A stretch of DNA of 51,254 nucleotides, filler included, from Jimgerdemannia flammicorona (lineage: Eukaryota): NCBI GenBank assembly GCA_003990765.1. It is 2 parts of 2 records of this genome, joined end to end, with 100 filler letters (N's around TTAATTAATTAA, not from the genome) between each part and the next. Parts side by side here need not be neighbours in the genome. Positions count along the whole stretch, not along the records: positions 1 to 25,581 come from RBNJ01000818.1; 1 more part is not named here. One strand, given 5' to 3'. A model generated the notes under the pieces. The model was not told the DNA's origin. It made no database searches and worked only from the letters and a program-made list of their open reading frames with translations. Position 1 is the stretch's first letter. Each line of letters begins with the position of its first letter. A program made the translations under genes and the position numbers. Of this stretch, positions 4,501 to 51,254 are shown piece by piece.

Positions 4501-5531
4501 CTTTCCTCCACTGAAGAAGAAGTTCGATCGTCTTTTCAGGCGAACTTTTGCATTCCAAGACCCGCGGTGGTGTGATGTCCGACCATTCTAACAACCCGTG
4601 GTTGATAAATCGGGCAATTTCCCATTGCGCGAAGAAAGGCAGGCGATTAAGCTGCCCATGCAAATGAAATCCACCATCGATGATGATTTGAACTGGAGAG
4701 GACCTCGCGATCGGCTTAGGATGATTATTGGACGACTGTTTCCTATCGGCCATTTTCTTGATCCAGCTTTCAGTGACTGTTTCTTTGGAATCCCCTGCTA
4801 TCGACGCCGTGCCTGCGGGATTCGAAATCTCGATCCTTTGGGAAGCGGTATTTTCGTCCACAGGGGCACTTACATTAACACAATTTCTAGGCTCGTCTCG
4901 CCTCGTTTTTTTTGGCTGAAAAGGTTGGTTCGGATTTTCCGATGGCGTGGGTGGTATTTCAGAAGCCATGACAGCTGATTGGGACGCCGGAACACCTAGA
5001 CTCTCTCCAACGGTGGTGCATTGCGTGTTCGAGTCGGTAGATGTCAATGTCTGACTCGGTTCAGCAAGCTGATAGGACGTCGACGCTTCAGAGCCGATAC
5101 TCGATGGGTTCAGAAACGGCGTTTGGACGTCGTTTATGTTTTTGTCGTGCTCGGAATCTAATATTATGACAACAGAGTGAATAAATATACCGTTTTCGCC
5201 CAAAACAATATACGCCTGTCAATGATGCATAAGCGTTCGAGTGCTCACCAAGGTACTCCGAGAAAACCCCAACTAAACGCTTGTTCAGTCTCATAATAAA
5301 TAGCCCCTGGACTATTGGGCTAGGAATTTCGCGGGACACGCCAAAATCCCGGACAAACTTGTCGACTTCTTGCACAAGGCCGGCCGGGTCAACGGAGGAC
5401 AACGACATCATCACCTCCCTGTAGGTAAACCCCTCGACAACCATACAGGTCGCAGGAGGTTTAGGAAATCCTAGGGCCTTTTGGACCCTTTCAAAGGACA
5501 TTTCGAACGACTTTGTGTTTTTGTTTTCCAT
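1557..5531 (-). CDS. RNA-dependent RNA polymerase (cellular RNAi RdRP, QDE-1-like); exons 5531-5249, 5157-2825, 2708-1557; 1255 aa
   Basis: Motifs SNRFFRKYGSHRFL, TDGCARIS, QGRINGAKGIW and RNPC are present. The catalytic LSGGDYDGD joins IFCCWD across a GT-AG intron (2824-2709). A phase-1 GT-AG intron (5248-5158) links the 5531 ATG ORF in frame. Confidence 0.93.
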
Positions 5532-9146: not shown

Positions 9147-11543
9147 ATGCAGAGACACACCGCAATTTTTGCGCTCTTCTGTCTCTTGTACGTCCTGCTC
9201 ATCGCCTCTCCTCTGGCGTTGGCTGATGACAAGAAGGAGGAGTTTGGAACTGGTACGTATGAAGCTCATGTTCAATTTATCTACTTCGCAGCCCTGCATC
9301 TGTGATTGAGCGAGCTGAAAGGCTCGTGGTCGAGTCGACGATGCCTATGCATCCCAGAACATACCGAATGCCGCCGCCATTGTCCAGCTCCCGAAAAGCC
9401 CTCTCAATGGACCATGATTGGCATTTCTCAATCAACACATTGACTACATGTTTTGAATCTAATGGCACATCTCTACTTCTTTCTTGCACATCCAGTCATT
9501 GGCATCGATCTAGGAACAACTTACTCTTGCGTCGGCGTCCAAAAGAACGGTCGCGTCGAAATTATCGCCAACGATCAAGGTCACCGAATCACCCCCTCCT
9601 ACGTCGCCTTCACTGATGACGAGCGCCTAATCGGCGACGCCGCAAAGAATCAGTACGCCTCGAATCCCACTCGTACCGTCTTCGACGCCAAGCGCCTGAT
9701 TGGCCGTCGCTTTAGTGATAAGGAGGTCCAGGCCGACATGAAGCATTTCCCTTTCAAAGTCATTCCCCGAGAGGGTAAGCCCGTGATCGAGGTTGAGGTC
9801 AAGGGTGAAAACAAGATCTTTACCCCCGAAGAAATCTCTGGCATGGTCTTGATCAAGATGAAGGAGACCGCTGAGGCTTACCTCGGCAAGAAGGTGCATA
9901 TCTATGAATATTACCTGTATTTCCACATATACGAGGACGACACTTTCTCATATGTTCATGCGCCATGGTAATTTAGGTCACCCACGCTGTCGTCACCGTC
10001 CCCGCCTACTTCAACGACGCCCAACGTCAGGCCACTAAAGATGCCGGCACCATTGCTGGTCTCACTGTCCTTCGTATCATCAACGAGCCCACGGCCGCCG
10101 CCATTGCGTACGGCCTTGACAAGACCGGTGGCGAACGCACTATCCTCGTCTATGATCTCGGCGGTGGTACCTTCGATGTCTCCCTCCTCTCCATCGACGA
10201 CGGTGTTTTCGAGGTCCTGGCAACCGCCGGTGACACCCACTTGGGTGGTGAAGATTTCGATAACCGCCTCATTGATCACTTCGGCAAGACCTGGAAGAAG
10301 AAGAACGACAACGAAGACATCACTAAGGATCTCAAGACCATGGGCAAGCTCAAGCGTGAAGTTGAGAAGGCCAAGCGTGCTCTTTCCTCCCAAATGTCTG
10401 TCCGCGTCGAGATCGAATCCTTCTTCCAGGGCAAGGATTTCTCTGAGACGCTCACCCGCGCCAAGTTCGAGGAGCTCAACAACGATCTCTTCCGCAAGAC
10501 CCTCAAGCCTGTCGAGCAGGTCCTCAAGGACGCTAACCTCCAGAAGACCGACATTCACGACATTGTCCTTGTCGGCGGCTCTACTCGCATTCCCAAGGTT
10601 CAGCAACTCCTCGAAGATTTCTTCAGTGGCAAGAAAGCCTCTAAAGGTATCAACCCTGACGAGGCCGTCGCTTACGGCGCCGCCGTCCAGGGTGGTATTC
10701 TCTCTGGTGAGGAGGGTTCTGACAAGGTCCTCTTGCTCGATGTCAATCCGCTCACTCTTGGTATTGAGACCACTGGTGGTGTCATGACCAAGTTGATCCC
10801 GCGTAATACCGTCATCCCCACCAAGAAATCTCAGATTTTCTCGACCGCCGCCGATAACCAGCCCACCGTACTCATCCAAGTATTCGAGGGTGAACGCGCC
10901 ATGACCAAGGACAACAATCAACTCGGCAAATTCGAGCTCACTGGCATCCCGCCGGCTCCCCGTGGCGTTCCTCAGATCGAAGTCACATTCGAGATTGATG
11001 CCAATGGTATCCTCAGGGTTAGCGCTTCTGACAAGGGTACTGGCAAGTCCGAGGCCATTACCATCACCAACGACAAGGGTCGTCTCTCTCAGGAAGATAT
11101 CGAACGTATGGTTCAAGAGGCGGAGCAATTCGCGGAGGAGGACAGGGTTCTTCGCGAGAAGACTGAGTCGAAGAACGCGTTGGAGAACTACTTGTACGGC
11201 CTCAAGGTAAGGCATTCCTCCATTGAAACAATTACACGATGCTAAATGTTGGCTGCTGTTCATAATTCTAATTATATGCACTTTTCTAACATTCCAGACT
11301 CAACTTGCGGACGATTCTCAGCTGGGTGGCAAGGTTTCATCCGAGGACAAGGAAACTATCTTGGCGGCCGTGAAGGAGAAGATCGATTGGTTGGAGGAGA
11401 ACTCGGGTTCGGCCACTAAGGAAGACTATGACGAGAAGCGCGAGGAGGTTGAAGCCATCGTGAACCCAATCACCTCGAAGTTGTACGGCACCGGTGCCCC
11501 CCCGTCGGAGGACGAGCCGTTGGAACCGCGCGATGAGCTCTAA
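9147..11543 (+). CDS. KAR2: ER Hsp70 chaperone BiP/Kar2; exons 9147-9252, 9496-9893, 9977-11206, 11298-11543; 659 aa
   Basis: Signal peptide [26 protein letters not shown]; Hsp70 signatures [39 protein letters not shown]-terminal RDEL; three GT-AG introns keep the frame. Confidence 0.97.
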
Positions 11544-12852: not shown

Positions 12853-13599
12853 TTACGTTATTTTTGTTTTCGAGGGTCGCTATTGGTTTGGTGAGGATGG
12901 GGAGGAGAACAAGGATGATGTGGGCGGTTCGGAGTGCTTATGGTAGGGTGGGATATTAGGGTATCGGATTGAGACGCATTGATGGTGCGGATGTGCGAGA
13001 AATTGTGCGTGTGCTTGGGTGCATGATGTATGCCTCTCTAGACTAGCCATCTTTCTTCTATTGTTTCTGGTCCAGGTTCTCTTCTCGTCTCTTACCCCGC
13101 TACACCACTCCTACTCACCACGTATTTCTTGTGGGGGGGGTTTTTTTCTGTCTGTTTTCATATTTCATTTGGACATGTGTACAAAGAAAAGACGTTACCG
13201 CACTTCGTTTACGGACCATAGACGAGCTGTTGTATCTAACAGCTGTCCTGCCGCTGGGACACATTGACGTAATATATGTACATACTCCACCTTAACGCAG
13301 TGGAAGGATGGAGGTCGAGCTATACGTATGTTGAAAGCCAGAGATGGTACGGGAATGCAATTGCCTGATTACGAATTAAATGCAGATTCTCTGACAGTGC
13401 CGCGAGTTCGGAAAACGAGGATGCTATTGCACGATGATTCAGCGACGCTAAATAGTATCGTTGGTTAAACTACCTGCTGGTAAAGTGAAAAATATTTCAA
13501 TACAGCTGTTGTATAAGAATATTGTATAGCTTGTAAGATACATGTAGATCTCAATACATGTAAGTGATAGAAGAGAATGAGCTGCGATATATTTCTATC

Positions 13600-13989
13600 T
13601 TATTATTATTAATATTAAACTGTGAGTTGAGCTGATATTTTTTTTATTATATTTCAATAATGCGAATCTTATTAAATTTAACTAATATAAATATTTAAAT
13701 AAATTTATAATAGATTATTATATTATAAAAAATATTTAAAAATTAAATTATTGAAAAATTATATCTTCTAAATTTTAGTTTATTTGAAATTTTACTTAAA
13801 AAGATATATTTTAATTAAATAATACTATTTATTTAAGAAAATAATATAAATATATAATACTAATTAAAATTTATATTATATATTATATTATAATAAATAT
13901 TTAACTTGAAAAATATTCAATTTCTTTATCTTAAATATTTCTCTTTTTGACTTTTAGAGTTAATTATAAGATAAGTTTAAAGTATATAT
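13600..13989. repeat. Extremely AT-rich eroded repeat, partly homologous (inverted) to 747-795
   Basis: The reverse complement of 13896-13940 (aaatatttaagataaagaaattgaatatttttcaagttaaatatt) matches 747-795. Confidence 0.5.
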
Positions 13990-15519
13990 TATAACGGTGA
14001 CCCCAGAATGATAACATCAGCACAGAAGACAGTCTTTCCTTGCAAGCCACCAGATCGGAGCACAAGAAGATCATATGGCATATGAGATGAGTAATGATGA
14101 CCAACTGTGAGTCATTGTGACCACAGTACAAGCATCCTGAGGAATATAAAAGAAGGATCAAGGAACTGCAGTAACAGCAACCAACAAGACCCACCAATCT
14201 CAAAATAGCTCAAAGACTCATTACAAACAAAATGTCTGCTGCCTGCTAAACCTCAAGGTCAAGGAACCACCAAGGCATCTCAGTTGAAGAGAGGATGTTT
14301 CAAGACATCAGAAGAGCCATGAGAACCTGCTCAAGAAGAACTCCTAGTATCAACCTGGGTACTAGTGATTCTTATCACTATATCCTCTACTACTATGAAA
14401 TGGAAACAAGGATCATTATTGCTACCAAATGTCTCCAAATATAGTAGAAGTATAAAATAGGAAACCTCCTCTGCTGGGAGTTCTCACAGGCCAGCCCTCA
14501 AGAGTTACAAGATGCCACTTCCATGGATATACATGAGGTAAGAATGGCTAAGAAGATCCATCAGATCTTCAGGCATATACCATGGTCAATCTCTAACTTG
14601 GAGTATGTTAGAGTCTCAGATTTCAGAGATATGTCATTCTGCTATATCAATGCACTAGAAGCCAGAGTGGCTACAGAAGCTCAGTCTACTATCACCCTCA
14701 ATAGTGATGAAGTAGAAGACTTCTGGCATCCTATCCTTCAGGACAACCCAGACCAATTTCTGCAAGGATTGATCTCAGTATTCCAAGGCCCAAGCATCCA
14801 GATTAGACCTCCCCAAGATCCCACATTTGTTTTCTATTTTGTGGAAGAGAACCTTATAGACTAGAGAGCTCCAGACCTCCTTTCTACCACTGAACATGAT
14901 GACTTCATCAGTGATGACATCATCCTGTACAACATTGAAGCATGCAAAACATGTGATATACGCGAGACATGCAACCTATGTGATGATAACAACAATAATG
15001 ATGAATTCGCAGACCTCATCTCCTTCAAAGACATCCTGATCTCTGATGATGAAGCCTCTATAGTCCTGAACATTCTGCTCTAAGTCTCTTGGTTACACTG
15101 AATAATGCCAGCACTGGCATTTGATGTAATACTGAATAATGCCAGCACCAGTATTCTGAACCTGTACAACTATCAGTGCCGACCCTGGAACTTAGTAGTT
15201 TTTCCTATTCTGGCATTTTATTTTAGTTATTGGAATTTATATTTAGCTTTATATCTTAGCAATTATTGAATTATATTTTGTATAAATACTCCTCTTATTT
15301 CTTCTAAAATAAAGTCAGTCAACTCAGTACAATATACACACTTCCTTACAAGCAATCTAAGAGATAACAAGATAGTTAAAGATAAGAAGTTTGAGAACTA
15401 TAAGACCTTGGGAAGGTACTCCAATAAGAACTTACTTATAACAAACTTGAGTTAGTCTAAGAGATATACCTTGAAAAGAATCTGGCATATTTGAAGGATT
15501 CAGCGACTACTACATAACA
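13990..15519 (+). repeat. 5' LTR of element A (~1.53 kb), followed by a PBS-like TGGTGCC at 15523
   Basis: Starts TATAACGG (probably mutated TGTAAC) at the compositional boundary and ends ...TAACA 3 nt before TGG. TATA boxes at 14145 and 15281, AATAAA at 15308. No partner LTR is present to confirm the limits. Confidence 0.65.
14232..15083 (+). pseudogene. LTR-encoded accessory ORF of unknown function (copy A), 4 premature stops
   Basis: Single frame from ATG 14232 with stops at 14247, 14442, 14445 and 14862; collinear protein similarity to the ORF at 21932-21105. Confidence 0.8.
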
Positions 15520-15575
15520 ACTTGGTGCCTATTGGCTGGTGATTCAAGATGAATCTCTCACTTTCAAGCTAAAAA

Positions 15576-18500
15576 ATGAACAACCTCCACAATAACTACC
15601 CTGACTACAAGAGTCACCCCTGCAATAATTCAAGACAAGATAGAAATGTGTCTCCCCACATTCTATGGATATACTACTGAAGAGTCAATCCTGACCTTCA
15701 TTGAAGACTTTGAACAATTTGCCACCATATAAGCTCTTAGTGTGGATGCACAATTGGCCCTTCTACCAGTCAGTCTCAGAGGACCTATCAGAGATAAGTT
15801 CAATGCAGCCACTATTGCTGATAATGGTGCAGCCAAACTTGCCAACATAAAGGCCTTTCTCAGAATAACATATTATACTGAAGAGATCAAGCAAGCTTTC
15901 AAGAATTAACTCAATATTATCTGTCAGAGACTTAGTGAAGATCTCAACTCATTCTATACCCAAATATACCATCAGATTGTCCTGGCTGGCTATGATGATG
16001 CCCTCAAGGAACAAATAGCAGATTCAACCTTCCTCAAAGGAGTTCACTCTGAAATTGCCCTAGCAATCTGGTCTACCCCAGCTGCACTGACCCTTGATCA
16101 GAAAGTGGTCTTTGTACAGAGATATTGGACTGCTAGATACCCTGTTAAACACTCAATAGAGAAAATAACTGGCATCAAGATGGAGCCATCAAAGCCAACT
16201 AGTATTATACTTGCCACAGTTGTAAACAGACAACCAACCCTACCTACTCCTAAGGCAGCCAAAGCTGACCCAGTGGAAGAACTTGCCAAGCAGTTCACTG
16301 AGATAACTACACACCTTGGTGATGTTGTTAGAGAAGTCTGAAGCACCAATAGGAGACTAGTACAGAGATTTGCAGCTACTACAGAAGAATGCAATATCAC
16401 ATGCTTCAGATATAGAGAAGAAGGCCACTATATAAAGAATTGCATGACCAAAACAAGATGCAAAGCCCAACCAAGCAATGCTAGCAGAACCAGAGAACAA
16501 ACCAATGCAGTAGTCATCAAGGAGATTAGTAACACTGATGATGAAGAATACTACAAGGAGCTCAAATTCTACCCTGCTACTGAAGGTACCAGAACCCGGT
16601 CCAAGCCCTATGATAAGAAGAGCAACAGCAAGCCAGTTGGAAGACCAAAGAAGACCCCAGCTGTCACTATTCAAAGCAAGACCCAATCTGAGGAGATTGA
16701 TCAAGATATGGAGTTAGATAAAGCTGCCCACCAAATTATTGAAGGAACTACTCCAGTCTCAGGAGAAAGTGAGAGCAAGAAGGAACAGAAGCTGTGCAAG
16801 ACCAAGATCCATCAGTATGATATCTACAAGGACCTCAAGGAACAGAAGGTCAATGCTACTTTTGGACAACTAGCTGAAGTCTCTACCTTCAGACAACAGT
16901 TGAGAGTAGGACTTGTAACTACTGCCAAAAATCAAGAGTACAAGATTGTAGAAGCTCACAATGCACAAGAAGAATCTGAAAACTCAGGTGAAGAATCCAA
17001 AGACCAGTACAAGACATCAGCCTATACCCCATGTCAGATTGAAGACTGTATATTTGATGCCATCATTGATACCGGTGCTGGAGGATGTCTTATGAGCAAG
17101 AAGACAATTGACCACCTAGGTTGGGACATTGAAGAGTCTACCAAGATGGTCTATGTTACAGCAGATGGTATACAAGCTACCCTCCTTGGTAAAATCTGAG
17201 AAGTCTCCATCAAGATAGGAGGAGCTACCATCTCAGTAGACATGATTGTTATAAGTGCTACCAACTATAACATTCTCATTGGCAACCAATGACTTCACAA
17301 GGTCAAGGCCATCATTGACCTCAATGCCCAGAAGATACAGATCAACTATAGAGAAAGAAAGGTATGAGTCTCTATCAATGTCCACAAAGGAGTCCTACCA
17401 GACATAGAGGAAGGAGATGAAGAGGACACAGAGGTCTTCATGCACTTGGTGAATAAGAACAAGAACAAGACACCCAAGCTCACAGATGAGCAGTGGTACA
17501 ACAAGATCATCAATGGCTATACCCCTCAAGGAAGATACCCCCATAGTACTAAGATGTACTACTCTGAACACCTGAATGACTGCTGGTCCTATATCAGTGA
17601 AGTCAGGAAAATCTGCCAACAGAAATATGAGCAAGAAGCCACTGAAGCAAAAAGAAAAGCCAAAGAAGATGACCAGCCCCCAGAGCTTCAGGCTGACAGT
17701 GATGATGAGGAGGAACAAGAGTCAGACATCACCCTCAAGGTCAAGAAGTTTCACCCTAAAGCCAAGATCTCAGAATACAAGACTGAAGGAGCTATAGGAA
17801 TAGACCTTGCCAGCATTCAAGATACTACTCTTGAACCACAGACCACCACCCTACTTGGCACTGGAATTAGAGTCAAGCTGCCAGAAACCATGCCAGAATT
17901 ATCAAGACCAGGAGCAGTCTGGCCAAAAGTGAAATCTCAGTTGAAGGAGGAGTAATTGACCCTAATTACACTGGCAAGATCTTCCTCATAGTCAGGAATC
18001 ACAACCCCACCACCCCATTCAAAGTCAAGAAGCATGATAAGATTGGCCAGATGCTGATCCACGAAATCAAGAAGCCCAAGATCATAGAAGCCATCAAACT
18101 CATCAAGACCAAGAGAGGAGAACAAGGCTTTGGATCTACTGGAAGAGGAGCCTATGCTACCACCAAGATTACTGAACTTGAGCATAAGAAAGACAAGGGC
18201 CAGAATAAGCACACATACACTATTGGAGAAAACTTTCCCCTGGAAGAACAACTTCTCAAGATTCTGTATCAGAATGAAGAAGTACTTGTTACAGACTTCA
18301 GAGATATCCACAATCAAGAACCCAAATACTACCATGAAGTTGACACTTGTGATATCAAGCCTATCTACTAGAAAGCCAGACTCATACCACCTGCCTACAG
18401 AGAATGGCTGTGAGCAGAACTCAAGGAAATAGAAGAAGCTGGAATCATCAAGCAAGCTATCAGCCCCTGGGCCTCACCCATTGTCCTTGCCTTAAAGAAA

Positions 18501-20310
18501 GGAAGCAAGCCTGGAGAGTTTGTGCCAAGACTCTGCATTAACTACAGGAAGATCAATGCTATTACTAAGAAGGATAGACAGCTCTTGCCAAATATTCAAG
18601 AAATCCTTACCACTCTTGGAAGTGAAGTCAAATACTACACCACCTTAGATCTGTTCTCAGGCTTCCATCAGATTGGTCTCACTCAAGATACTAGTGAGAA
18701 ATCAGCCTTCATCACACCTGATGCCACCTATATCTACCTGTGAATGCCATTTAGAATATGCAATGCCTCAGTAAGTTTTCAGTAAATGATGAACAGAGTC
18801 TTCAGCAACAAGATTGAAAAATGGCTCTTTATCTATGTTGATGACATGATTATCTTCAGCAACACTGTACAGAAACATATCAATCACATACAACTAGCCC
18901 TCAAGAAGCTCAAGGAGCATGGCCTTTATATCAAGCCCAAGAAATGCAAGTTTGTGGCTCAGGAAATCACCTATCTAGGACACCTCATCAATCAGACTGG
19001 AATCCACACAGACCCCATAAAGATTGAGGCTATTGTAGCCTACCCAAGATCCAGAACAACTACAGAAGTCCATGTCTTCCTTGGACTGGCCAGCTACTAT
19101 AGAAGATTCATCAAAGGATATTCCAACATTGCAGCACCTATCTATAAGCTACTGAAGAAGGAGACCAAATTTGAATGGACCAAGAAGTACCAAGAAATCT
19201 TCAATGAACTCAAGACCAGGTTGACCCAAGCACCTATTCTCAGAAGACCAGACTGGAACCTAGAATTCATCCTGCAGACAGATGCGAGTGCTATAGGACT
19301 TGGAGCAGTCCTAGCTCAGAAGAAAGATAGATATGAATATGTCATCTCCTATGCAAGCTGAGGTACCTGCAGAGTAGAACAGAACTATGAGTCATGTAAG
19401 CTTAAATGCTTAGCAGTAATCTGGGCAGTAGACAAGTTCCACTACTACCTAGCTGGGAAACACTTCACTATTCAAACAGACCATTCTGCTCTTGCCTAGC
19501 TATTCCACACTCTGAACCCCAAAGAAATATATGCCAGATAGATCTACAGACTATAAGAGTATAACTGTACTATCAAGCACTACTCAGGAAGACCCAACAC
19601 CAATACTGATACACTCTCAAGGACATCCCAAAACACCCCCATCAAGACTATTCAACATGAATAAGGAGCTATATTATGGATTAATCAGCTACCTTGGGCA
19701 GCAGAAGATGCCCAACCACCTCAAACTCTGGACAATCACCATTATCAACCAGACTTAGAAACAGTTTGAACTAGACAACACTATACTCAGAAAAGAAGAA
19801 AAGCTAGTAATACCCAAGTACAAGAAGTATCAAGTAATGAAGGAAGTACATGAGCAAGGATACCTAGGAGGAACCAATACATATGACAAGGCAAGAAGAA
19901 CTATATAGTGGATCAAGATAGAAGAAGACCTGCACCAATTTGTCAAAGGGTGTGACAAGTGCCAAAAACAGAAACAAGATCAGTAAGACCAGGCACCTGG
20001 GTCATCAAGAATTGAGCCTATTCCCTTCCACCACATTACAATAGATATCATTGGGCCACTACCAGTAATACTATCAGGAAACCACTATATTATAGTTATT
20101 ATAGACCTCTTTACCAAATGGATAGAAGCAGGAGCATTACAAGAAGCCAATGCCCTCTCTATAGCTGACTTTCTGCACTGAGAAATCATCTGCTGCTACA
20201 AGATACTGAAGCAAATCACAACAGACTATGGTATGGAATTTGTCAATAGATTTTATGAAATAATGTATCAGAAATACAAGATCCAGCACATCAAGACCAC
20301 TGCATACCAC
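15576..20310 (+). pseudogene. gag-pol of element A
   Basis: ORF fragments 16105-16341, 16444-17199, 17440-17955, 18051-18371, 18522-18743 and 18786-19361 carry the domains in Gypsy order. Confidence 0.88.
17731..18143 (+). pseudogene. dUTPase domain of element A (one frameshift near 17890)
   Basis: Motifs I-V recognisable: AIGIDL, TRSSLA, GVIDPNYTG, DKIGQ, RGEQGFGSTG. Confidence 0.9.
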
Positions 20311-22145
20311 TGTAATAACTCTCACTTCTACCCCTCTCTTATCCTTTGGATATTAGGGAAGTAGACTATTACTTAGGGACTTAGTACACAATGTGTACCA
20401 AGAAGCCTTTAGTTTGAGGAAGCACTCGCTTATAAGTAGTTGTAGCGGCAGTGCCTTATCTTTCAAAGGTCTTTCTCTTGTGCCCTATTTCAAGGGTCTT
20501 GTTCTTTGCTGTACACAGACTGAATTCACCTTAGAATTTAGGTTCAATGGGTTTACTTAAGTCTTTGGGGATTTATATACTGGTCTCAGTTCTGGCAGAA
20601 GTTAGCTAGACTTCTGGAGTTTAGTCAGAAACACTAGAGTCACTTAGATGTTATTACTAAGACTCAGAGGAATGTGTGTGTGTGGGGGGGGGACTTGATT
20701 CTTATATCAAGGACTAAACTAAAACTGCTTTATTTCGGATGGAAACTGGGGGGTATTTATACAAGTTGGTCCGCGATTTCTGACTAAGTATGAGTGACTA
20801 ATTTGGTAACTATAATGAGGTTTATGATCGCGACCTTTGTCAGGTGGTTTTTGGTAAAAAATATCTTTGTAATCAGGACCTCAATTACTAGGCAATGATC
20901 AGCAGCTATGGCAACTGTTGCTATGGTGCCGGTTGTCAGGGATAATCTAAATATCATTTTCCACATCATTTGTTTGCATCATTCATCACTCATTATTCAT
21001 ATGCCATACTTAATCGTATGATGACGTCATCGCTGGGTCACGTGATTGTTCATCTCATCATGTCCCATCTGTTCACTCATTCATTCTATTATATCCTTCT
21101 CCCCTTAGAAATCAACATCCTCGTTGATTGAGAAATTGAGAACTAGGGGAGAGAAAGGTGGGGAATCCTCCTCAGGGTTGTTACCATCTTCTTCAGGGGC
21201 AGGGGGAGTGGTTACTGGTGGTTCACTGTCTAGGATAGAGAAGTTAATGAGGTCTGCAAATGGTTCTTGCATTGGGACAGGTGCTGGTGTAGGGGTTCTC
21301 CATCTGATGCGGTTGGGGCCATCCAAGTAGGGCTCTTGATCTTCATACCTGGGAATATCCATTTGGATAGGTGGTCCTTTAAAGAGGTCAGAGAGGCCTT
21401 GGAGCCATTGGTCAGGGTTGTCATTCAGGAGGGGGCTCCAATGAGGTTCGATGTCAGTAGACTTGAGGGCAATCCAGGAGTTGGCTTCTTGGGCGACCTT
21501 GACTTCTAGGGCATCGACCTCAGGAAAAGAGAGGTTCTGGAAGTCCTTCAGTTGTATGTAGTTGAGGTTGGAGATTGTGAATGGTACATGGCACATGATT
21601 TGATGGACCTTCTTGGCAAGTCTTTGCTCATGCCTGTCTAGGTGAGTCCAGTCAGAGACCTGGTCCATGGGTAGGCCACTTGTATGTTGGAGAAGCTGGT
21701 GACTGATTTCATATTCATGCCAGATTTCTAGGTGACTAGTAGTAAGGTAGGCCCTTTCAATAATTTCATGGCAGTCAAGGACATATTGTCCTAGGTCTGG
21801 GCTGGAGAGGTTAAGGGCCTCTGAGCAGTGGTTCCTTCCTTGGATAGCAACCTGGATGTGTCCAAAGAGGCAGTCAACCTGGCTTGAGAGGGGCTGGCTA
21901 TGGTGGGCAGTTTAGTGGCAGGTAGTAGGTATTCTTGTCTTGTCTTTTCTTTGTGAGAAGAGGGGGATGAGAGTTGCAGAATATTCTTGCCTTGGGTATT
22001 TATACTTATTCACCTGTCTGATGTGACCTTCCTTTGGTCACACTTTCTGGCAAAATGCATGACCTGTGCTGTAAGTAGGGTATGTGCTAGTCATATGAGA
22101 AAAATCCTGATTTTAAAGATATCATCACTTATAATTATGGTTACA
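20311..22145 (-). mobile_element. Long LTR 'B' (~1.83 kb) carrying the accessory ORF; flanks do not form a TSD
   Basis: Minus-strand termini TGTAACC (22145) ... TTATTACA (20311); TATAAATA at 22004 and 20761; AATAAA at 20734. It interrupts the element A integrase. Flanks are ACCAC and CAGAG. Confidence 0.65.
21105..21932 (-). pseudogene. LTR-encoded accessory ORF of unknown function (copy B), nearly intact
   Basis: Open frame 21911-21105. The likely start ATG>ATA is at 21932 with one TAA at 21914. Aligns with copy A, e.g. HEQRLAKKVHQI..ISNL..NDNPDQWLQGL vs HEVRMAKKIHQI..ISNL..QDNPDQFLQGL. Confidence 0.8.
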
Positions 22146-25100
22146 CAGAGTTATCAGGTCTTGGTCCATTTTTATTTTTGTCTGGTTGGCGCATTTGCGA
22201 GGACTGGCTATCCTTGTCTAGGGCGAGGGCTCCCATTGTCGCGGCTGGGGGTTCGAACCTCTTGGAAATAGACTTTCTTATAATCCAAGACAATTCTTAG
22301 TAACAATATCTGTCACGTGGATGGACTTAGACTGGTTTCAACATTGTTGGCTTTCCTAAGTTTCACATGAAGCATCCATCATCATCTAGCAGAGATGATA
22401 CAGATGGCGTGAAATGGAGTTGTTCAAATGTGTTTTGCTGTACAGTACTAGATTGTTCTTTTGCTCAGGTATCTTCTTGTTGGTTATCCATAGTGTTCCT
22501 TTTTCTCTGCAATGTTTGGTATTATATGTTTCCAGTTAAAAATATGTGGTACCCTTCTGCTCGCTGTGTGCTCCCATGCTTAGAGCTGTAGTTCCTTCCT
22601 TTGCTGGGGGGTGAGTGTTTCCATGTAGTCCTGGAGGGCTTGGCATGCATTCTTCAGGGCCTCTTCTTTTTCCCAGGTAGCATCATGGGTGGGGTAACCC
22701 TTCCACTTGATCAGGAAAAAGTGCTTGACTGTTTTGGGATATTTGCAGACCTTGTGGTCAAGTACTTCCTCAATCTCGAATTCCTCATGATCATTGATCC
22801 TAATTGGGGGTGGTGGTGGAACTGTATGCTTGGGGAATAGGTTCTCATAGTAGTCCACCAATTGACTAATATGGAATACTGGGTGTACTTGGATATTGTG
22901 GGGAAGTTGCAACTTGTAGTTCACTTTGCTGATTTTTTCCATGATCTTATATGGTCCAATTCTTCTAGCATAGAGTTTCTTGGCTGGTTGTTATGCCAGG
23001 GTGTCTGGGTGGAGGTGGTCTGTTCTAAGCATGACTTTGTCACTAATATTGTAGGAGGCTTCTCTTTGCTTCAAGTTCATGTACTTGGTCTGGTAGTCTT
23101 GTGCTTCTATGAGAGCATCTCTTGTCATTCGGGTAAGGTCAGAAATGGTCTCGGCCAGATCTTGGGCTGCTGGGACTGCTGATTTCGCAGTAGTACTTGG
23201 GGTCCTTGGGTGTTGACCATGGTTCAGGAAGAATGGAGTCTTCTTTGTAGAGGTTTGCTGACTGTTGTTGTAGGCAAACTCAGCATGAGCTAGGTACTTG
23301 TCCCAATCATTTTGCTTGTAACAGTAGAAGATACTAAGCATCTGTTTGAGAGTTCTATTTGTTTGCTCGGTTTGACCATCAGTCTGAGGGTGGTAGGCAG
23401 TAGAGAACTTCAGCTTGGTTCCATGGAGGAAGAAAAATGCCTTCCAGAAGTTGCTTGTGAACTTGGCGTCTCGGTCAGATACAATAGTACTAGGCATGCC
23501 ATGTAGCCTGAATACTTGATTGAGGAAAATCTCGGCAATCTCTGGTACTGTAGCAGTAGTCTTGGTGGGTACAAAATGGGCTTGTTTACTTAGGTGGTCC
23601 ACGAATACCACGATGGCATCCCATCCTGCCTTGGTCTTGGGGAGTTGGACAATGAAGTCCATTGCAATCTGGTCCCAATTGTAACTCAGGATAGGCAAGG
23701 GTTGCAGGAGTCCTGCTGGTAGCTTGTTACCACTTTTGAACCTTTGGCACATCTTGCATGAGGCCACAAAGTCTTTGATATCCTTGGTCATCTTTGGCCA
23801 GTAGAACTCTCTTGAAAGAAGGTTGTAGGTCTTTTTGAAACCAAAGTGTCCTGCTGCAGGGGTATCATGGAGTTCCTGCATGATCTTGAGTCACAGAGTA
23901 TCATTGTTGGGTACAACTACTCTGTCATGGTCCCTGTAGATAAGTCTATCATGGTAGGTGAATCTCTTGGCCATTTGTCTCATGGGTTCTGGAACCTTGG
24001 CCTCTGGGTCCTGGCAGAATTGAAGGAAATTCATCAGGGGGCTGTCTTGCTGGTAGCCATCCTTGATCATTTGAGTAAGGTCTCCAATTACTTCGACCAT
24101 GAAGACAAGTTTGTCTTCCATGTACCTGGAGAAACCATCAGCCACACGGTTGGTTTTGCCTGGGATATACTTGATTTCCATATCAAAGTTAGCAATGATT
24201 TCCATCTAGCAGGCTTGTCTGTGGGTCAGTATAGGCTATGTGTGAATATACCGCAGTGCATGGTAATCAGTGTAGACCACAAATGGTTGTCCTAGGAGGA
24301 AATGGTGCCATTCCTGGAGTGCAGTGACAATAGCCAGGAGTTCCTTCTCATGGGTAGTATATCGGGTCTCAGCTGGCTTGAGCTTCTGTGAAAGGTAGGC
24401 CACTGGGTGGTCTTCTTGGCTGAGCACTGCTCTAATAGCAATGTCAGAGGCATCTGTGGTCAGGGTGAATGGTCTGGTAGGATCAGGTGCAATTAGCACT
24501 GGGGCCTCGGTAAGGAGTCTCTTGAGATGGTCTATAGCCAGGGTGCATTTGGGGGTCCATTCAGCTTTGATGTTCACTCCTTTATAGGCCAGGCTGGTCA
24601 ATGGGGCTGCAATAGTAGAGTATCCTTGGATGAACCTTCAGTAGTAACTGGCAATACCCAGAAAGTGCTGGAGTAGCTTGAGGGTAGTAGGGATAGGGAT
24701 ATCCTTAAGGGCTGATACCTTTCAGAGGTCTACATTGATACCTTTGGCAGAAATGATGTGTCCTAAGTACTCGATCTGGTCTTGATAGAACTTACACTTG
24801 CTCATCTTAGCATAGAGCTGGTGTTCTCACAGAAGGATCAGTACTTGTCTAAGGTGGGTGTAGTATAGCTCTACTGTCTCGCTGTAAATTAGTATATTAT
24901 CAATATACACAAGGATACAGATGTTGAGGAGTGGTCCAAAGATGTCATTCATCAGATACTGGAATGTTGCTGGTATATTGGTCAATCCAAAAGGCATGAC
25001 TCAGAACTGGTAGTGTCCAAACCATGTTCGGAAAGCTGTCTTCTCAATGTTCTTCTCATCAATGAGAATCTGGTGGTAGCCATTTCGCAAATCCAGTAGA

Positions 25101-25581
25101 GAAAAGGTTTTGGCCTTGAAGATCTGGTGTAGTAACTCATCAATCCTGGGCAAGGTATATTGATTCTTGATAGTGATCTTGTTGAGGGCTCTGTAGTTAA
25201 TACACATTCGCAGAGAGCCATCCTTCTTCTTGACAAATAGAATGGGGGCTTCAAATGGAGAGCAGCTGGGTTCAATGTATCCTTGGGCCAGTAGTTTGGT
25301 CAATTCATCCTTGAGGGTCTTGAGCTCAGGTTGAGCCAGTTGATAGATACTCTTATATGGGGGTTCAGATCCTGGAATAAGATCAATTCCATGTTGGATT
25401 TGGTGCTTGGGTGGGAGTCCTTGAGGATCTTGGAATACATCTTGGAATTCTTCAAACAGTTCTTGAGCTTCTGTTGGAATTGGGCTACTTGTGGCTTTAG
25501 TGACTTCTTGTACTATACAGATGAAGTAGGTGTTTCCCTTTTTTCGAGAGAGTCTCTTCATTTAAATGGCAGAGATGATTT
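22146..25581 (-). mobile_element. Chromovirus (Ty3/Gypsy with C-terminal chromodomain) 'C': RT-RH-IN-CHD plus 3' non-coding region, truncated by the contig end
   Basis: [18 protein letters not shown] (YIDD mutated), TTDAS..HEKELLAIV, HDTPAAGHFG..CKMC, MDFIVQLP, VSDRD, AYHPQTDGQTE, chromodomain EFEIEEVLDH..FLIKWKGYPTHDATWE ending at 22580. Confidence 0.93.
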
Positions 25582-25681
25582 NNNNNNNNNNNNNNNNNNN
25601 NNNNNNNNNNNNNNNNNNNNNNNNNTTAATTAATTAANNNNNNNNNNNNNNNNNNNNNNNNNNNNNNNNNNNNNNNNNNNN
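25582..25681. other. Artificial contig spacer: 44 N + TTAATTAATTAA + 44 N
   Basis: A six-frame stop linker at 25626-25637 centred in a 100-nt N block; unrelated sequences on the two sides. Confidence 0.92.

Positions 25682-28951: not shown

Positions 28952-28980
<29 letters not shown>
25682..28980 (+). mobile_element. Degenerate L1/Tx1-like LINE: ORF1 (ends ~28334) and the APE endonuclease part of ORF2 (from ~28349), then poly(A)
   Basis: ORF1-like segment VVRLVVEGL..VLEGFGEMVDFRFMFWEGTKLRNGNYEAMV. ORF2 start ILSINVNNL..WLKVQRYDVVFLQD, ENFNMV (GDFN-like), LVDGVW. A29 at 28952-28980. The 5' limit is uncertain. Confidence 0.7.
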
Positions 28981-28983
<3 letters not shown>

Positions 28984-30172
28984 AAAGCTGGATATCTGTA
29001 AGCAATTTGTGTGTCAGTTTCCTAATTGGGACAGTTCTCTGGGTGTAGCAGCGATTTGTGTGTGTGAATGGGTTTCCTTCTTGGGTCAACTGGAAATGCC
29101 ACAATTTTGTATAGTGAGGTAATTTCCAAAAGTATGCAATTTCTGGGAGATGGTCTTGGTGCAATGATCTCTATATAGTACAACAATCTTCTGGGTGTAA
29201 TGGTCTGGCAATTTAGCAGTTCTCCTTATATGATTTCTGCATGATGATCTCTGTGTAGCGTGACAGGTTCCTTATGTGGGACATTCTGATAATCTGGCAA
29301 ATAACTCGATTTGGCTCACTGGTAATAGAGGATGGTGCAGATCCTTATTACTGGGAATTGTACTGGTGGTGGGTTCTCTGTATCGGCTCACTGGGAACAA
29401 ATGAATAATTTGGCAGCAAGTAACTCAGATAACTCAGATAACTCAGATGTCATGGAAACTCGGATGGGTGTGAATCAGGTTCTTCTGGGAATGCAGATAA
29501 CTCAAAAATAGCAGATGACATGGCTTCTCCTGAATTGGTGGGCTTCTGGGAAATAACTCAGATGGTGCAGATTCTTCTGAATCAGTGGCTTCAACTGGGA
29601 ATATGGCAGATAACTCGAAAGGTAGCAAAGTTCTTCCTTGAACTTGGTGGCAGACTTCAGGCTTATCTGGCAAGCAGACCAAAAATGGACTCATTCTTTG
29701 TATCGGAAAGTGGACCAGAGTGGAAGAGAAGAGAACTAAGCTCACAACTTCTTGGTAGTGGCTCATTGGTAGGCATATCTCCTAAGTGTTGCAATCCTTC
29801 CTGGAACAAGTGGCTTTTGGCAGGCATTTCTCCTAAGTATATCAGACAATTGACATTTGCTTTGGTTTGTATTCAACTTTTGGACTGAGGTTTATTCACT
29901 CTTATCTCTGGGGTAAATTATTCATTGTAGATGCTATCTGGTTGCTATCTGGCTAACTATAGATCTGCTATTTATAGTGTGTTTGGGTGGACTGTTACTG
30001 TCCAGCGGACAGTCACTGTCCAGGAGACAACCACTGTTCACATTATTCCCTTCTTTGGCTATGTGGTTATTTATACATTTTTCCACAGCAATGGTTGCTG
30101 GTTACTATACTATATTAATATTCATATCACCTGGTTAGTTTTTGAGATTGCTATATTTCATAGTTTGTCACA
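28981..30172 (-). repeat. 3' LTR of element E (lacks its last ~138 nt)
   Basis: Starts TGTGACAAAC at 30172 right after the PPT CTTTAGTGGGGGCTGA (30188-30173); aligns to 37897-39087. Confidence 0.93.
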
Positions 30173-30211
30173 TCAGCCCCCACTAAAGAATAGTCTGTCC
30201 CAGACTGTTCT

Positions 30212-30778
30212 TCAGTCATCATCCCAATAAGCATAAGCTGCTTCTGCATCTATACCTGTCCCATCATCTTCATTATCTGTATCAGGGTCACTCCATTCTA
30301 GCTCTAGATCTTCTTCTTGTCCTTCAGAAAACATGATGTCTACTTGTTGGAGAATACTCTGAAAGGTGGTCTCATTTATCTGATGAATATCATTGAGGTA
30401 GAAGTAAGATTGCACCAGAGCTCTGACATTTCGTTTATACAGAGTGTAGATTCATTTGGCAGTTCTTGCTTCTTGGCAGATTATCCCAGCTGGTCCTCCA
30501 ATGTATGGCTGTTCTTCAAGTAATTGTCCAATGTTGTAGAAGGCCTGTAGATGGTGGATCTGTAACAATCTTTGGGTGATGGCAAGGTTCTCTTGATGTT
30601 TCTGGATCAATTGTATTGGGGTTCCTTCAAGTTGACAGAACTGGAGTAAGGGAACTGGTAGGGCCTGGAAGGAGCTGAGGACCAATGTCTGGAGGTGCTG
30701 ATCAATTCTTTGACTCATGGTGTAGAGGGGAGATATAGTTTGAGGCAATTGATGTATACTGATATTCTCAGGGTTCAT
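30212..30778 (-). pseudogene. Extra ORF3 between integrase and PPT of element E, unknown function, one premature TGA at 30452-30454
   Basis: ORF-track pieces 30452-30778 and 30212-30415 are in the same frame. Acidic C-terminus; ends ~25 nt before the PPT. Confidence 0.75.
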
Positions 30779-30791
30779 CCATGCATGCTTC

Positions 30792-33700
30792 TTAAATAGA
30801 TGCTAGTTCCTCTAATGTTGTATACCATTTGGGTTCCAACTTGGCAGCAAAGTTTGTTTCAATCATACTTCTCCAAACTAGTACTTGATCACCAATCTTG
30901 ATCTTCTGGTCCTTCTGTTTCCGGTCATAGTACTTCTTTTGTCTTTCTTGGGCTTTGGTAATATGAACTCGGGCCTGATTACATAACTGTTCTGCCTTCT
31001 TGAGGAGATATCCAAGCTTCTCATGATCAGTGGTTCTGTTTTTCTTGGCAAACATCATTTCGAATGGCTTTTGTTTGGTGGAGGCAGCAGGGGTGTTCCA
31101 AATTTCCCACAGGATCTCAGGTAAGCAGAGGTCCCAATTGATAATATTGACTTGGGCAAGTCCTTTCTTGATGGTCTGGTTCATCCTTTCTGTCATGTCA
31201 TTGGTCTGGGGGTAGTATGATGTGGTTCATTTGAGATGAATCTTGTGAAATTGAACATAACTTGTGATTATGTTATTGATGAATTCTGTGCCTCAGTCAG
31301 AGATAAGTTCTTCTGGGGGTCCATATCTGAGTGTGAGTTTATGGAGGAGGCTTATAATGTTTAAGGCATCTGCGATTTCTATTGAGAAAGCCTCAGGCCA
31401 CTTGGTCGGATGTTCTACAAATATAAGGATATATTTGTTCCTTCTTGGTGTAACTGGTAGAGCTCTAATTACATCTACTCTCCATCTTTGAAAGATGTGA
31501 GTGAGTGGGGGAATCAGTTGTAGAGGGGCTTGATAGTTCTTCTTTCCTTGGTACTTCTGGCAGATGTCACATTTCTGGATGATGTCTCAGACTTGGGTCC
31601 TGAGGTGGGGCTAATGTTGATATTGTTTTCGAATCTTATCTTCTGTGCTTGTCTGTCCTTGTGGGCTTTCTGATATTCTTGGCAGATGAGATCTTCTTGT
31701 TCCTTAATGGTCTGAGGAGCTTCCTATAGAGCGTAGTTCCTCAGGACACCCTTCTTCTGGTTCATTGGGGCTGGTGGGAAAGTACATCAACATTGTTGTG
31801 GGTTTTCTCTGCTTTGTTGGTGATGGTGATTTTGTAATCCTGAAGGATAAGTATCCAGCAGGCTAGGATTCTGGTGGGTTCCTTGTGGTTGAATAGCCAT
31901 TTGAGAGCTGCATGGTCTGTGATCAGGGTGAACCTTTTTCTGATGAGGTAATGTTTGAACAGAGTGACTGCCTATATAACTGCAAGGAATTCCAGTTTAG
32001 TGCTACCATAGTTCATCTGCTGCTGATGGGTAGCTCTGCTTGCATAAGCTATTATATGGTGCTGTTGATCAGGTCCTTCTTGGGCCAGAACTGCCCTAAG
32101 ACCATCTTTAGAAGCATCTGTATACAAGATGAATGGCTTCTGTAGATTGGGGCATACAAGAATTGGTGCTGTAGTCATGAAGTTCTTGAGTTCTCTGAAG
32201 GCTTTTTCTTGTGTTTCTGTCCATTTGAATGGTACTTCTTTCTTGAGAAGGATTCGGATTGGAGCAGCAATTTGGGCAAAGTCTTTGATAAGCCTTCTGT
32301 AATAGGATACTAGCATCAGGAATGATAGTGTTTCCTTCAGGGTTTTGGGTACTGACCAATTGTTGATCATCTCAGTTTTCTTTGGGTCTGTATGAGTTCC
32401 TTCTTTTGAAACTATGAATCCAAGGAATTCAAGTTTCTGTTTCCCAAAGTAGTATTTCTTTGCATTCAATCTCAGGTGGTTCTTGTGGGTGAGCTTGAAG
32501 ATTACCTCTAGGTGGTGCAGGTGTTCTTCAAAATTTGCTGAATAGATGTTAGAATCATCCATGTATACAATCAGGCAATATGGTGGATCAAGAGGACATA
32601 GACTGAATTCATCATCCCCTGAAAGGTGGGGGGTGCATTGCAGAGTCCAAAGGGCATTCAGAGGTATTCAAACAGTTTTCCTAGAGTAAGAAATGCTGTC
32701 TTTTGAATGTCCTTGAGGTCCATGGGGATCTCATGGAATCCTGTAAAGAGGTCCATACTGCTGAAGTATCTGGCATCTTGTAACTGGTCCAAAAGGTCAT
32801 CGATTCTGGGCAAAGGATAAGCATCCTTCTCAGTGACTGAATTGAGTTTCCTGTAATCTACACAAAGTCTCCATCCTCCCTTCTTTGGTATAATAAGTAT
32901 AGGGCTAGCCCAAGAGCTGGGAGAGGGTCGGATGACTCCATTGTCAAAGAGTTCTTGGATATGCTCCTTTTCAAATGTTTTCAAGTGATGGGGTATTCTA
33001 TAGGATTTCTGCTGGATGGGTGTTGCATTTCCTGTATTTATGCTATAGTGATATGATGGATTATATGGCAGATTGCCATAATTAGTGGTGAAGATATCTT
33101 GATATTTGTTGAGAAGTTCTACTAGTTATTGTTGTTGTTGAGGTGTTAATTCTTCTCCAATATTGGTGGAAGGCTTCACTGTCTCCTGGGTCACAGAGGG
33201 GCCTTTCCTTTCTTCTGGGATATTTTGCTATTTCCTGATAGGTTTAGTTCATAAACTTCCCTATGAGTTTGGTTGAGAAAAGGCACCAGATGTCCTATGA
33301 TGGTCCCTTTTGGCAAGATGATGGTCTCCCAACTTTGGTTGGTTGCTTGGGAGTGTACTGGGTTCATCTTGTTGGAGAATGTGTATCCCTCTATGTCCAG
33401 ATGGGGAATATCTTCCTTAGGTTCAAAGAAAAGGTTTCTGGGGTCGGGTGGTGCAAAGATTTTGAAGGTTGTTTGTTCTCTAGGCTCCAGATAAGATTCT
33501 TGTGCAGTCTGACTTGTTGCCAGTATACTTGCTGAGGAACATTTCTCTTGAGGTGGTTGACTTGAAGGAGATATACTTCCTTCCTGTCTGAACTTCCAAA
33601 TCCTTTGGCTTGTCTTGTTCCTTCAGTTAGTTCAGAGACTTCTTGTAACTGTGGGGTCTTGACTTTCATGAAGACTGCTTGGGCAATCTTCTGTCCTTCA

Positions 33701-36700: not shown

Positions 36701-37202
36701 CATCTACTTGCTCTTTGGACCTTCTGATGCCTAGGGTGCAGACATGCTGGGAAATGTTTGGGGGAATTCCATTCATGAAGGTCATTGGACCAATGATGTC
36801 CTGATTAGTGGCATTGAACCCAGCAGCATGTATTCTCTTCTGGATTCTTATGAAGAAGGCTCTGGGTGATTCTCCAAGATTCATCTTCATCTCCATGATA
36901 GATTCCTGAGCCTTGTGGCGGGTTTCATTTCCTGTATACTTTTCAATGAGCCAGTGGACCATGGCCTCATATTCAAGCTCATAGGACATTGCTGCTTGTA
37001 TCTGCCTTGCCAGTTCTGAATCTGGGTTGTTTGCTATTTGATGGAAAATTTCTCTGGCTGGTTCTCTGAGCTGAGCTTTGTAGATGGCAATTTTTCTTTC
37101 ATCTGAGAGATTCCTTAAGGCTGCAATTCCTTCAATTCCATCAAGGAATTCTCTGGGGTCTTCCTCTAGGTATCCTGCAAAGGTTGGCAATAAGGTGGCC
37201 AT
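30792..37202 (-). pseudogene. gag-pol of element E
   Basis: ORF fragments 36315-37202, 35709-36170, 33712-34170, 32658-32984, 31972-32562 and 30792-31196. The gag carries a 45-nt tandem repeat (YPPRDNRGYQQE x2). Confidence 0.9.
33586..33990 (-). pseudogene. dUTPase domain of element E
   Basis: DVGYDL, SRSGLA, GTIDPGYIGEI, QKIAQ, RQAKGFGSS. Confidence 0.92.
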
Positions 37203-37738
37203 TTCTTTGTCACTTTCTTCTAATTCTGGTTTGGGTTTGAATTCTGATTCTGGTTCACTTTCTGAGCTATTACTAGAGGTGGGGGTGCTTGTGTACCATG
37301 AGAATAGTGTTCTGGACCTTGAATGAAGTGGAGTAAGTCTAGGTATTCTTGTAGGAGCTACTTCTAACTCTGTAAGGAGTTGTGGTAAAGGTTCTATTAA
37401 TGCAATTGATGGAGCTGATATGGGGCATCTGGCTGTAAGGTCTCAGGTTCATGTGATAAGATCTTTGAGTTCTTGTACAAGTTCTTCATAATCTCTAGTA
37501 GGGCTGCCTTTATTGTCTAGTTGATCTGGTTGGCGATTTCAGGCTGTACTGCCTTCTGGTTGGGAACCTTCTGATGCTGGGTAGTTGGTAAGTCTTGATG
37601 TGATTACTTCTCTTCCTGTCCTAATGCTGGTGATGACTAGTTCTCCTGTAGTGGCAGAGATTGGTGTTGTATGTATCAAATGTATCCAGTTTGACTGTGG
37701 GTTCTTATGAACTGAAAAGTCATGTCGATTTTGAAATC

Positions 37739-37756
37739 TTCCCAGTTGAGCCCCCA
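37739..37756 (-). promoter_or_regulatory. Primer-binding site of element E, tRNA-Pro-like
   Basis: TGGGGGCTCAACTGGGAA lies 2 nt after the LTR end. It resembles the tRNA-Pro PBS TGGGGGCTCGTCCGGGAT once CpG decay is allowed for. Confidence 0.75.
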
Positions 37757-37758
37757 AA

Positions 37759-51235: not shown

Positions 51236-51254
51236 TTTTTTTTTTTTTTTTTTT
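51236..51254. repeat. Poly(T) tract interrupting Copia H at the window end
   Basis: 19 T to the end of the sequence; could be the tail of a reverse-oriented non-LTR insertion or a contig-end artefact. Confidence 0.6.

Follow-up and report, generated by a model that had tools for sequence, protein, structure and literature searches.

Can the long terminal repeats (LTRs) of a fungal retrotransposon carry a protein gene of their own? LTR retrotransposons are usually viewed as gag-pol machines with purely regulatory LTRs, and the question is raised by a stretch of 51,254 nucleotides of Jimgerdemannia flammicorona (GCA_003990765.1; hereafter the window), in which two parts of the assembly are joined by 100 filler letters and positions 1 to 25,581 come from RBNJ01000818.1. 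In two Ty3/Gypsy elements of this window, A and B, a long LTR holds a frame of one and the same protein family. Our reading, to which we give a probability of about 0.7, is that in one lineage of fungal-type Ty3/Gypsy chromoviruses an extra protein gene, on the sense strand, lies wholly within the U3 (unique 3′) region of the long (1.5-1.8 kb) LTRs, the LTR being a cassette of promoter, gene and polyadenylation (polyA) signal. The features of the two elements, including the open reading frames (ORFs) and the candidate primer-binding site (PBS), are as follows.

13990-20310, plus strand: element A, Ty3/Gypsy, with LTR, decayed gag, protease, dUTPase, reverse transcriptase (RT) and RNase H; ended at 20311 by element B
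13990-15519, plus strand: 5′ LTR of element A (1530 bp), starting TATAAC (TGTAAC in other copies) and ending ...CATAACA
14145-14150, plus strand: upstream TATA box of A (TATAAA), 87 nt before the ATG at 14232
14232-15083, plus strand: ORF A, a decayed copy with in-frame stops at 14247, 14442, 14445 and 14862
15281-15313, plus strand: downstream TATAAA (15281) and the sole AATAAA of this LTR (15308), 27 nt apart; putative border of U3 and R (the repeat region)
15523-15540, plus strand: PBS-like site of A (TGGTGCC...), 3 nt past the LTR end
about 15550-16440, plus strand: decayed gag of A with a CCHC-like knuckle, 3′ of the PBS-like site
15520-20310, plus strand: interior of element A, with Pfam matches to gag, protease, dUTPase, RT and RNase H
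20311-22147, minus strand: 3′ LTR of element B (about 1.84 kb), starting TGTGTAAC/TGTAAC at 22147/22145 and ending GTTATTACA at 20311
21999-22004, minus strand: upstream TATA box of B (TATAAA), 72 nt before the ORF start at 21932
21105-21932, minus strand: ORF B, its ATG changed to ATA, with a TAA at codon 7 (21914-21912) followed by 268 codons open to the stop at 21107-21105
20729-20761, minus strand: downstream TATAAA (20761) and the sole AATAAA of this LTR (20734), 27 nt apart
22148-25581, minus strand: 3′ part of the interior of element B, with RT (25561-25004), RNase H, integrase, chromodomain and the pol stop at 22580

The Pfam matches place both elements among known retrotransposons. 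Element B has RVT_1, RT_RNaseH_2, Integrase_H2C2 with rve, and Chromo (E 3e-13); element A has Asp_protease_2, dUTPase, RVT_1 and RT_RNaseH_2 and is truncated before the integrase. The pol order of a Ty3/Gypsy chromovirus (protease, RT, RNase H and integrase with a C-terminal chromodomain) is present, as are the TG...CA LTR ends, with a PBS-like site after the 5′ LTR of A and, in metagenome contigs, polypurine-tract and PBS-like contexts at the LTR borders. In element B a 430-nt tail with a purine-rich tract separates the pol stop (22580) from the LTR, which runs from 22147 down to 20311; the 5′ part of the element disappears into the N gaps at 25582-25681. Our limits for the two LTRs (13990-15519 and 22145/22147-20311) agree with the TGTAAC...ACA termini and with the evidence of metagenome contigs given below. 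A TGTAAC-like start is found in A, in B, in the window's element C (described below) and in L001, a 1535-bp soil-metagenome contig that carries an intact 291-codon ORF of the same family; the TATAAC of A is a G>A change.

Read from its start, the LTR consists of ~140-155 nt, a TATA box, a leader of 72-87 nt, an ORF of ~250-340 codons, a trailer of 200-370 nt, a second TATA box, AATAAA 27 nt later, a short R and U5 (unique 5′) and then the PBS. In A the sense ORF lies wholly between the 5′ end of the LTR and the downstream TATA/AATAAA pair, and B is its mirror image. In all three members the upstream TATAWA is the sole such motif 5′ of the ATG, at a distance of 87 (A), 72 (B) and 80 nt (L001); against a background of 19 occurrences over 21.7 kb of sense strand in the elements, the chance of this for all three would be ~1e-5 if they are independent. 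The last ~25 nt before the ATG are also alike among members. Between A and B, the spacing of the second TATA box and AATAAA is 27 nt in both, although the neighbouring DNA is unalignable: with blastn each LTR is without a match in the other, and in a MAFFT alignment the ORF core aligns gap-free at 52-62% identity, whereas the remainder reaches 36-50% with gaps. Most of this had been described in the initial annotation of the stretch, made from the DNA alone, namely two alignable ORFs in otherwise dissimilar LTRs, a TATA box before each (14145 and 22004), a TATA/AATAAA pair downstream (15281/15308 and 20761/20734) and, in A, an ORF 5′ of the PBS-like site, and on all these points our analysis agrees.

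The same annotation had spoken of ~280-codon ORFs in the two LTRs. Homologous sense frames do lie at 14232-15083 and 21932-21105, but neither is intact, with four in-frame stops in A, and an ATA start and one early stop in B; both copies of the LTR-borne gene in the window are dead. The decay is of the C>T/G>A type, and differences from metagenome copies are overwhelmingly transitions. At 14247 and 14445 metagenome contigs read C, giving CAA and CAG instead of the stops of A, and at 21914 they read G on the plus strand, giving CAA on the minus strand instead of the TAA of B. P0003, an intact database homologue of 247 aa, has W/Q/W (in LQMWQEYEIG and LIDWRAPD) where ORF A has stops. The strong repeat erosion noted earlier is real and accounts for the in-frame stops of A and B: the observed/expected ratio of CpG is 0.02-0.20 in the three Gypsy copies (13990-39087), compared with 0.87 in the window's Copia element, 1.07-1.17 in its host genes and 0.5 in L001. 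The Gypsy copies appear strongly deaminated and the Copia copy does not.

Homology of the two frames is clear at the protein level. BLASTP of B against the core of A gave 53/105 identical residues (50%, E 1e-37), and in tblastn alignments of 170-214 aa the identity was 37-41% (E 3e-39 and 5e-40). A third copy in the window, the LTRs of element C included, was found neither by tblastn nor by a family hidden Markov model run against the six-frame translation, which finds A and B only. Searches of 5.8 billion clustered proteins and 1.84 billion representatives, with a cluster look-up, yielded a small orphan family of 14 database proteins (P0001-P0014), 119-342 aa in length; every one derives from a metagenome assembly, and no named genome is among the sources. 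The family splits into a B-like, an A-like and a third subfamily, and intact frames of 247-342 aa are maintained across the three at 28-60% identity. Among metagenome contigs one locus, L001, was obtained from 155 pattern matches, and scans of viral and genome contigs gave no relative among 40 and 24 pattern matches, respectively. No fused longer form (600-2000 aa) was present among 7999 candidates, which is weak evidence.

We compared B and L001 over 261 codons by the Nei-Gojobori method. The proportion of nonsynonymous differences (pN) was 0.231 and that of synonymous differences (pS) 0.676, and the differences fell at codon positions 1, 2 and 3 in the numbers 75, 51 and 129. The nonsynonymous/synonymous rate ratio (dN/dS), a check proposed in the initial annotation, comes out at a rough value of ~0.16. 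These substitutions are consistent with purifying selection, and as far as substitution patterns tell, the coding signature is plain. Between A and B the ORF is 37-41% identical, comparable to RT/RNase H at ~40% over 416 aligned residues; since its divergence equals that of pol, the ORF is old in these lineages, and not a recent independent insertion. The earlier description of a selected gene lacking a known domain is upheld: from its intact homologues of 247-342 aa and its pN and pS, and with no match in Pfam or the Protein Data Bank (PDB), the LTR-borne ORF reads as a real, selected protein gene with no recognised domain.

Whether the ORF lies inside the duplicated LTR can be judged from its surroundings. 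ORF A is placed between the LTR start and the PBS-like TGG with gag, and ORF B after pol, the purine-rich tract and the LTR start. Consistent with this, L001 opens with ~100 nt resembling the pre-LTR tail of B, followed by TGTATAAC, the TATA box and the ORF. Further evidence came from Logan contigs of four soil-metagenome runs (X1, X2, X4 and X5), which were placed on 13500-25500 at a likeness of at least 85%. In contigs of X2 and X4 a polypurine tract and TG stand directly before 13992, which indicates that A-type LTRs are found at the 3′ end of elements as well. Beyond 20311, contigs of X1 (6), X5 (3) and X4 (2) run into a sequence whose complement starts ACT-TGGTAGC, matching the ACT-TGGT after the LTR of A; the PBS-like TGGTAGC after its end indicates that B-type LTRs are found at the 5′ end too. 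In addition, relative to the 12 interior bins of A, the summed contig depth of its four LTR bins was higher by factors of ~1.9, 2.1, 1.8 and 1.7 (X1, X2, X5 and X4, respectively), contig depth not being copy number. LTR placement of the ORF is thus supported indirectly.

How such an LTR might be expressed can be proposed from its motifs. The downstream TATA box would be the promoter of the genomic RNA, which would start at or just past AATAAA, the presumptive polyA signal shared by both transcripts. With that start, the polyA signal would lie in U3, R would be short and the whole ORF would fall within U3; AATAAA, at or upstream of the genomic RNA start, would act at the 3′ end only. The upstream TATA box would drive a monocistronic mRNA of ~1.1-1.3 kb that ends at the same AATAAA, so that we infer separate transcription of the ORF, and every LTR, solo LTRs included, would be a self-contained cassette of promoter, gene and polyA signal. 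Riding in the 3′ U3 of each genomic RNA, the ORF would be copied to both ends at reverse transcription, and for the same reason a spliced or internally initiated message would also be possible. The initial annotation had said that solo LTRs could spread the gene; this was worded wrongly, as solo LTRs can only retain the promoter-ORF-polyA cassette.

We analyzed the protein by profile and fold searches, and these returned no usable match. The ORF pieces of the window hit no Pfam family, and when 12 of 12 members were compared with Pfam-A by hmmscan (E up to 10), a single chance match appeared (ATG5_HBR, E 0.13, in one member). A PDB sequence-profile search at E up to 10 gave no matches, Foldseek against PDB gave none at E ≤ 0.001, with TM (template modelling) scores below 0.2, and a wide VIA-align search gave a best Z of 4.8, which is under the noise level for helical models. 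In the ESM Atlas no usable match was found, the Atlas model of P0012 having a predicted local distance difference test (pLDDT) of 0.36; one row (a 259-aa cluster, Mucoromycota, score 0.89) is a possible lead. A DNA-binding fold was not recognised in the fold searches. An origin from Gag was rejected at the sequence level: element A carries a separate gag with a CCHC-like knuckle downstream of the ORF, and hhalign of the family profile against the gag of C and of A gave a probability of 0.1, so that no capsid or nucleocapsid homology was detected by that comparison. Given the low confidence of the model, a remote fold common to the LTR-borne protein and Gag is conceivable.

The AlphaFold2 models concur in helices at ~21-186 and a disordered tail of pLDDT <50, and the protein is predicted to consist of a helical domain of ~190 aa and a disordered, acidic, aromatic-rich tail. 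The C-terminal part has an isoelectric point of 4.05-4.41 with 19-34% aspartate plus glutamate, and the tail motifs F-x-D-L-I-x-F, V-L-N-F and D-D-W-P-L-F-Y are kept across subfamilies, the tails being otherwise unalignable. In 3 of the 5 proteins examined the N-terminus is basic, with a net charge of +3 to +6 over the first 30 residues. Acidic activators are composed of a folded targeting domain and a hydrophobic tail rich in acidic residues, and because the predicted protein combines a helical domain with such a tail, a transcriptional or anti-silencing regulator is our preferred guess. Of what defines an acidic activator only the composition fits (an acidic tail with F/W/L clusters). The idea of a trans-activator or anti-silencing factor, put forward in the initial annotation, suits this predicted composition of helical N-part and acidic aromatic tail, from which we infer it; we hold it as a tentative guess that the product is a nuclear regulator which raises LTR transcription or counters silencing. 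The fuller proposal, in which each long LTR would be a complete gene cassette, its product a regulator acting in trans to switch on the LTRs of the element or to weaken host silencing, the gene duplicated with each insertion and kept by solo LTRs, and the whole a fungal 'complex retrotransposon' convergent with mouse mammary tumour virus (MMTV) and foamy viruses, seems to us unlikely to hold in all its parts.

Equally unlikely, in our judgement, is that the architecture is as proposed and the protein serves another end, as an adaptor in RNA export or packaging, as a cofactor of Gag or integrase, or as an acidic protein that binds histones. Such roles would suit the basic N-terminus and the acidic tail with its conserved hydrophobic motifs, and F-x-D-L-I-x-F and V-L-N-F might equally be read as export signals or as motifs for interaction with SUMO or Atg8. 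However, the protein has no RNA-binding or other known domain and shows no likeness to gag, and nothing discriminates among the candidate functions.

Several findings weigh against the interpretation of a U3-borne regulatory gene, and two of the elements concerned are listed here.

28977-39087, minus strand: element C, the sole full-length element of the window, with 1.2-kb LTRs ~90% alike and a dUTPase
41546-42300, plus strand: fragment D, a B-like pre-LTR tail followed by a short LTR from 41828 (TGTTATCC)

The LTRs of element C and the LTR of fragment D are without the ORF. In the window the ORF is seen in one LTR per element, as A is without its 3′ end and B without its 5′ end, and no element was found with the ORF in both LTRs. 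The two ORF bins of B had ~0.6, 1.05, 0.5 and 0.17 times the depth of the B interior (X1, X2, X5 and X4, respectively), which suggests that many B-family LTRs are without the ORF or are more than 15% different. With C and D lacking it and the B-type ORF segment shallower than the B interior in 3 of the 4 runs, the lineage does not carry the ORF invariably; it would be LTR-borne in some lineages, and lost or never present in close relatives. As for selection, the dN/dS value between B and L001 is rough, given that dS has reached saturation and that B is a pseudogene. The two promoters, the polyA site and the R region are placed from sequence motifs. The AlphaFold2 models are of low confidence, with a mean pLDDT of 47.0 (7 sequences) and 52.8 (12 sequences), and since there is no match to a family, solved structure or fold, any function stands without homology support.

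Some details of C and D may be added. The tail of fragment D (41546-41845, plus strand) is 80% identical to the pre-LTR tail of B (22439-22138), and the homology of B and D stops at 22138, a few bases inside the LTR. The LTR of D (41828-42300, plus strand) is short and without the ORF, with two TATA boxes (~41999 and ~42186) ~190 nt apart; it looks like an ORF-less sister LTR that may have arisen via loss or LTR exchange. In the LTRs of C (37893-39087 and 28977-30172, minus strand) the TATA boxes and AATAAA all fall in the initial ~280 nt, and ~900 nt follow up to the LTR end, that is, a long U5-like part and not a long U3, a layout opposite to that of A and B.

We consider it decidedly improbable that the ORF lies in a very long R and not in U3, an arrangement in which the upstream TATA box would be the genomic promoter, the ORF would be the first cistron and be present again at the 3′ end of the RNA, and the downstream TATA box would be incidental. 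The upstream TATA box, ~140-155 nt from the LTR start, does stand at the usual site for an LTR promoter, and C and D likewise have a TATA box 100-170 nt from their LTR starts. A 5′ AATAAA ~1.15 kb from the cap should, however, terminate such transcripts before gag; gag would become a downstream cistron; and the 27-nt spacing of the second TATA box and AATAAA is kept in A and B despite unalignable surroundings.

Very unlikely, given the LTR boundaries, is a position outside the duplicated LTR, either as an internal extra ORF (3′ of pol in B and L001, in the leader in A) or as an unrelated unit nested in LTRs. No single element with both LTRs has been seen, and extra ORFs of plant elements usually lie between pol and the 3′ LTR or before gag, according to PMC7264820. 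Yet this would need opposite placements in two related lineages, and in A, B and L001 alike the ORF comes after the LTR start TGTAAC, which is itself preceded by a polypurine tract (in other copies of A) or the pre-LTR tail (B and L001); the LTR end and PBS are downstream of the ORF. The ORF bins of A are also at ~2 times interior depth in 4 of 4 runs, and the A-B divergence of the ORF, equal to that of pol, is contrary to recent independent nesting. Lastly, the frame could be a fragment captured from a host gene, or a product of chance that does nothing for the element. The small orphan family (14 database proteins) and the absence of the ORF from the related C and D might speak for this, but it is already disfavoured and extremely improbable in view of intact 247-342 aa frames over three subfamilies at 28-60% identity, a pN far below pS, a conserved start-codon context and TATA box, and homologues that come from metagenome assemblies only and none from a named host genome.

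The U3-borne gene may be set against known systems. Foamy virus tas/bet and human and simian immunodeficiency virus (HIV/SIV) nef are 3′-terminal genes of accessory or regulatory function that reach into U3, and foamy Tas, a protein of ~300 aa expressed from an internal promoter, has an acidic activation domain at its C-terminus. Their overlap with U3 is only partial and their promoters lie outside the LTR, whereas the ORF described here is wholly in U3; the LTR-borne protein has no homology to these regulators, and the analogy is one of layout and composition only. Closer in arrangement is MMTV, for which PMC9412291 describes a ~300-codon sense ORF, sag/naf, wholly in the U3 of a long (>1.3 kb) LTR, as here, as well as an extra U3 promoter, P2, upstream of the standard one and able to drive sag/naf. 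P2 would correspond to the upstream TATA box, a putative promoter here. MMTV also encodes a dUTPase, by the same source, and so do elements A and C. MMTV is, however, a vertebrate retrovirus and the element here a fungal-type, env-less retrotransposon; by hmmscan against Pfam-A (12/12 members, E up to 10, no meaningful match) and the PDB profile search its Sag has no sequence or family relation to the LTR-borne protein, which is acidic, predicted to be helical and without a membrane-protein sign, unlike the MMTV product.

Additional ORFs (aORFs) beside gag-pol, of unknown function, are described for plant Ogre, Retand and Tat-type elements in PMC7264820, and brtn of Botrytis Boty is an additional ORF of BcGypsy1. 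In fungal chromoviruses an 'add. ORF' appears in the legend of Figure 3 of PMC2864245; it is known by that legend only, and an overlap with the LTR-borne family is possible. Where their position is described, aORFs lie in the internal region or are antisense, unlike the ORF here, which is in sense and in the LTR. An ORF inside the LTR is not mentioned in the accessible text of PMC7264820, and no LTR ORF is mentioned in the part consulted of a paper on crapaud, an element whose LTRs have a variable 5′ half. The literature surveyed holds no description of a fungal retrotransposon with a protein-coding frame in its LTR, the 'add. ORF' positions of PMC2864245 not being readable. The LTR-borne gene is a new orphan accessory gene in an arrangement of known kind, best known from MMTV. 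If the proposal is true, regulatory complexity like that of complex retroviruses also arose in fungal-type env-less elements, and an orphan protein family gains a testable role in the conflict of element and host over methylation and silencing. It would also bear on annotation, since such genes are masked along with the repeats.

Along the window the nested retroelements come after host genes, and the remaining features are these.

1557-5218, minus strand: RNA-dependent RNA polymerase (RdRP), host gene (PF05183, E 1.9e-98)
9444-11299, plus strand: HSP70, host gene
48110-51253: Copia element

The RdRP gene (1557-5218, minus strand), of the RNA interference type, lies 9 kb from the retroelement cluster and has a short gap inside, typical of a small intron. 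Antisense to HSP70 a frame of 447 aa is open at 9959-11299 on the minus strand, with a Pfam match to NAD-GH (PF10712, E 1.2e-93). This family is widely regarded as an artefact of opposite-strand HSP70 translation, and the 9959-11299 frame is not a second gene. A scan for bacterial promoters and terminators was uninformative, as was a tRNA scan, which gave no genes. The dUTPase of elements A (17368-18368, plus strand) and C (33394-34218, minus strand) lies between protease and RT (PF00692, E 2.6e-15 and 4.5e-17, respectively), a position also recorded for PosPlaTy3-5 of the basidiomycete Postia placenta in PMC2864245. The 3.3-kb segment 25682-28976, from the N gaps of B to the LTR of C, has no similarity elsewhere in the window and no Pfam match. 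GC skew is very strong at 27-29 kb, at +0.42 to +0.48, and the segment terminates in a run of 29 A at 28952-28980.

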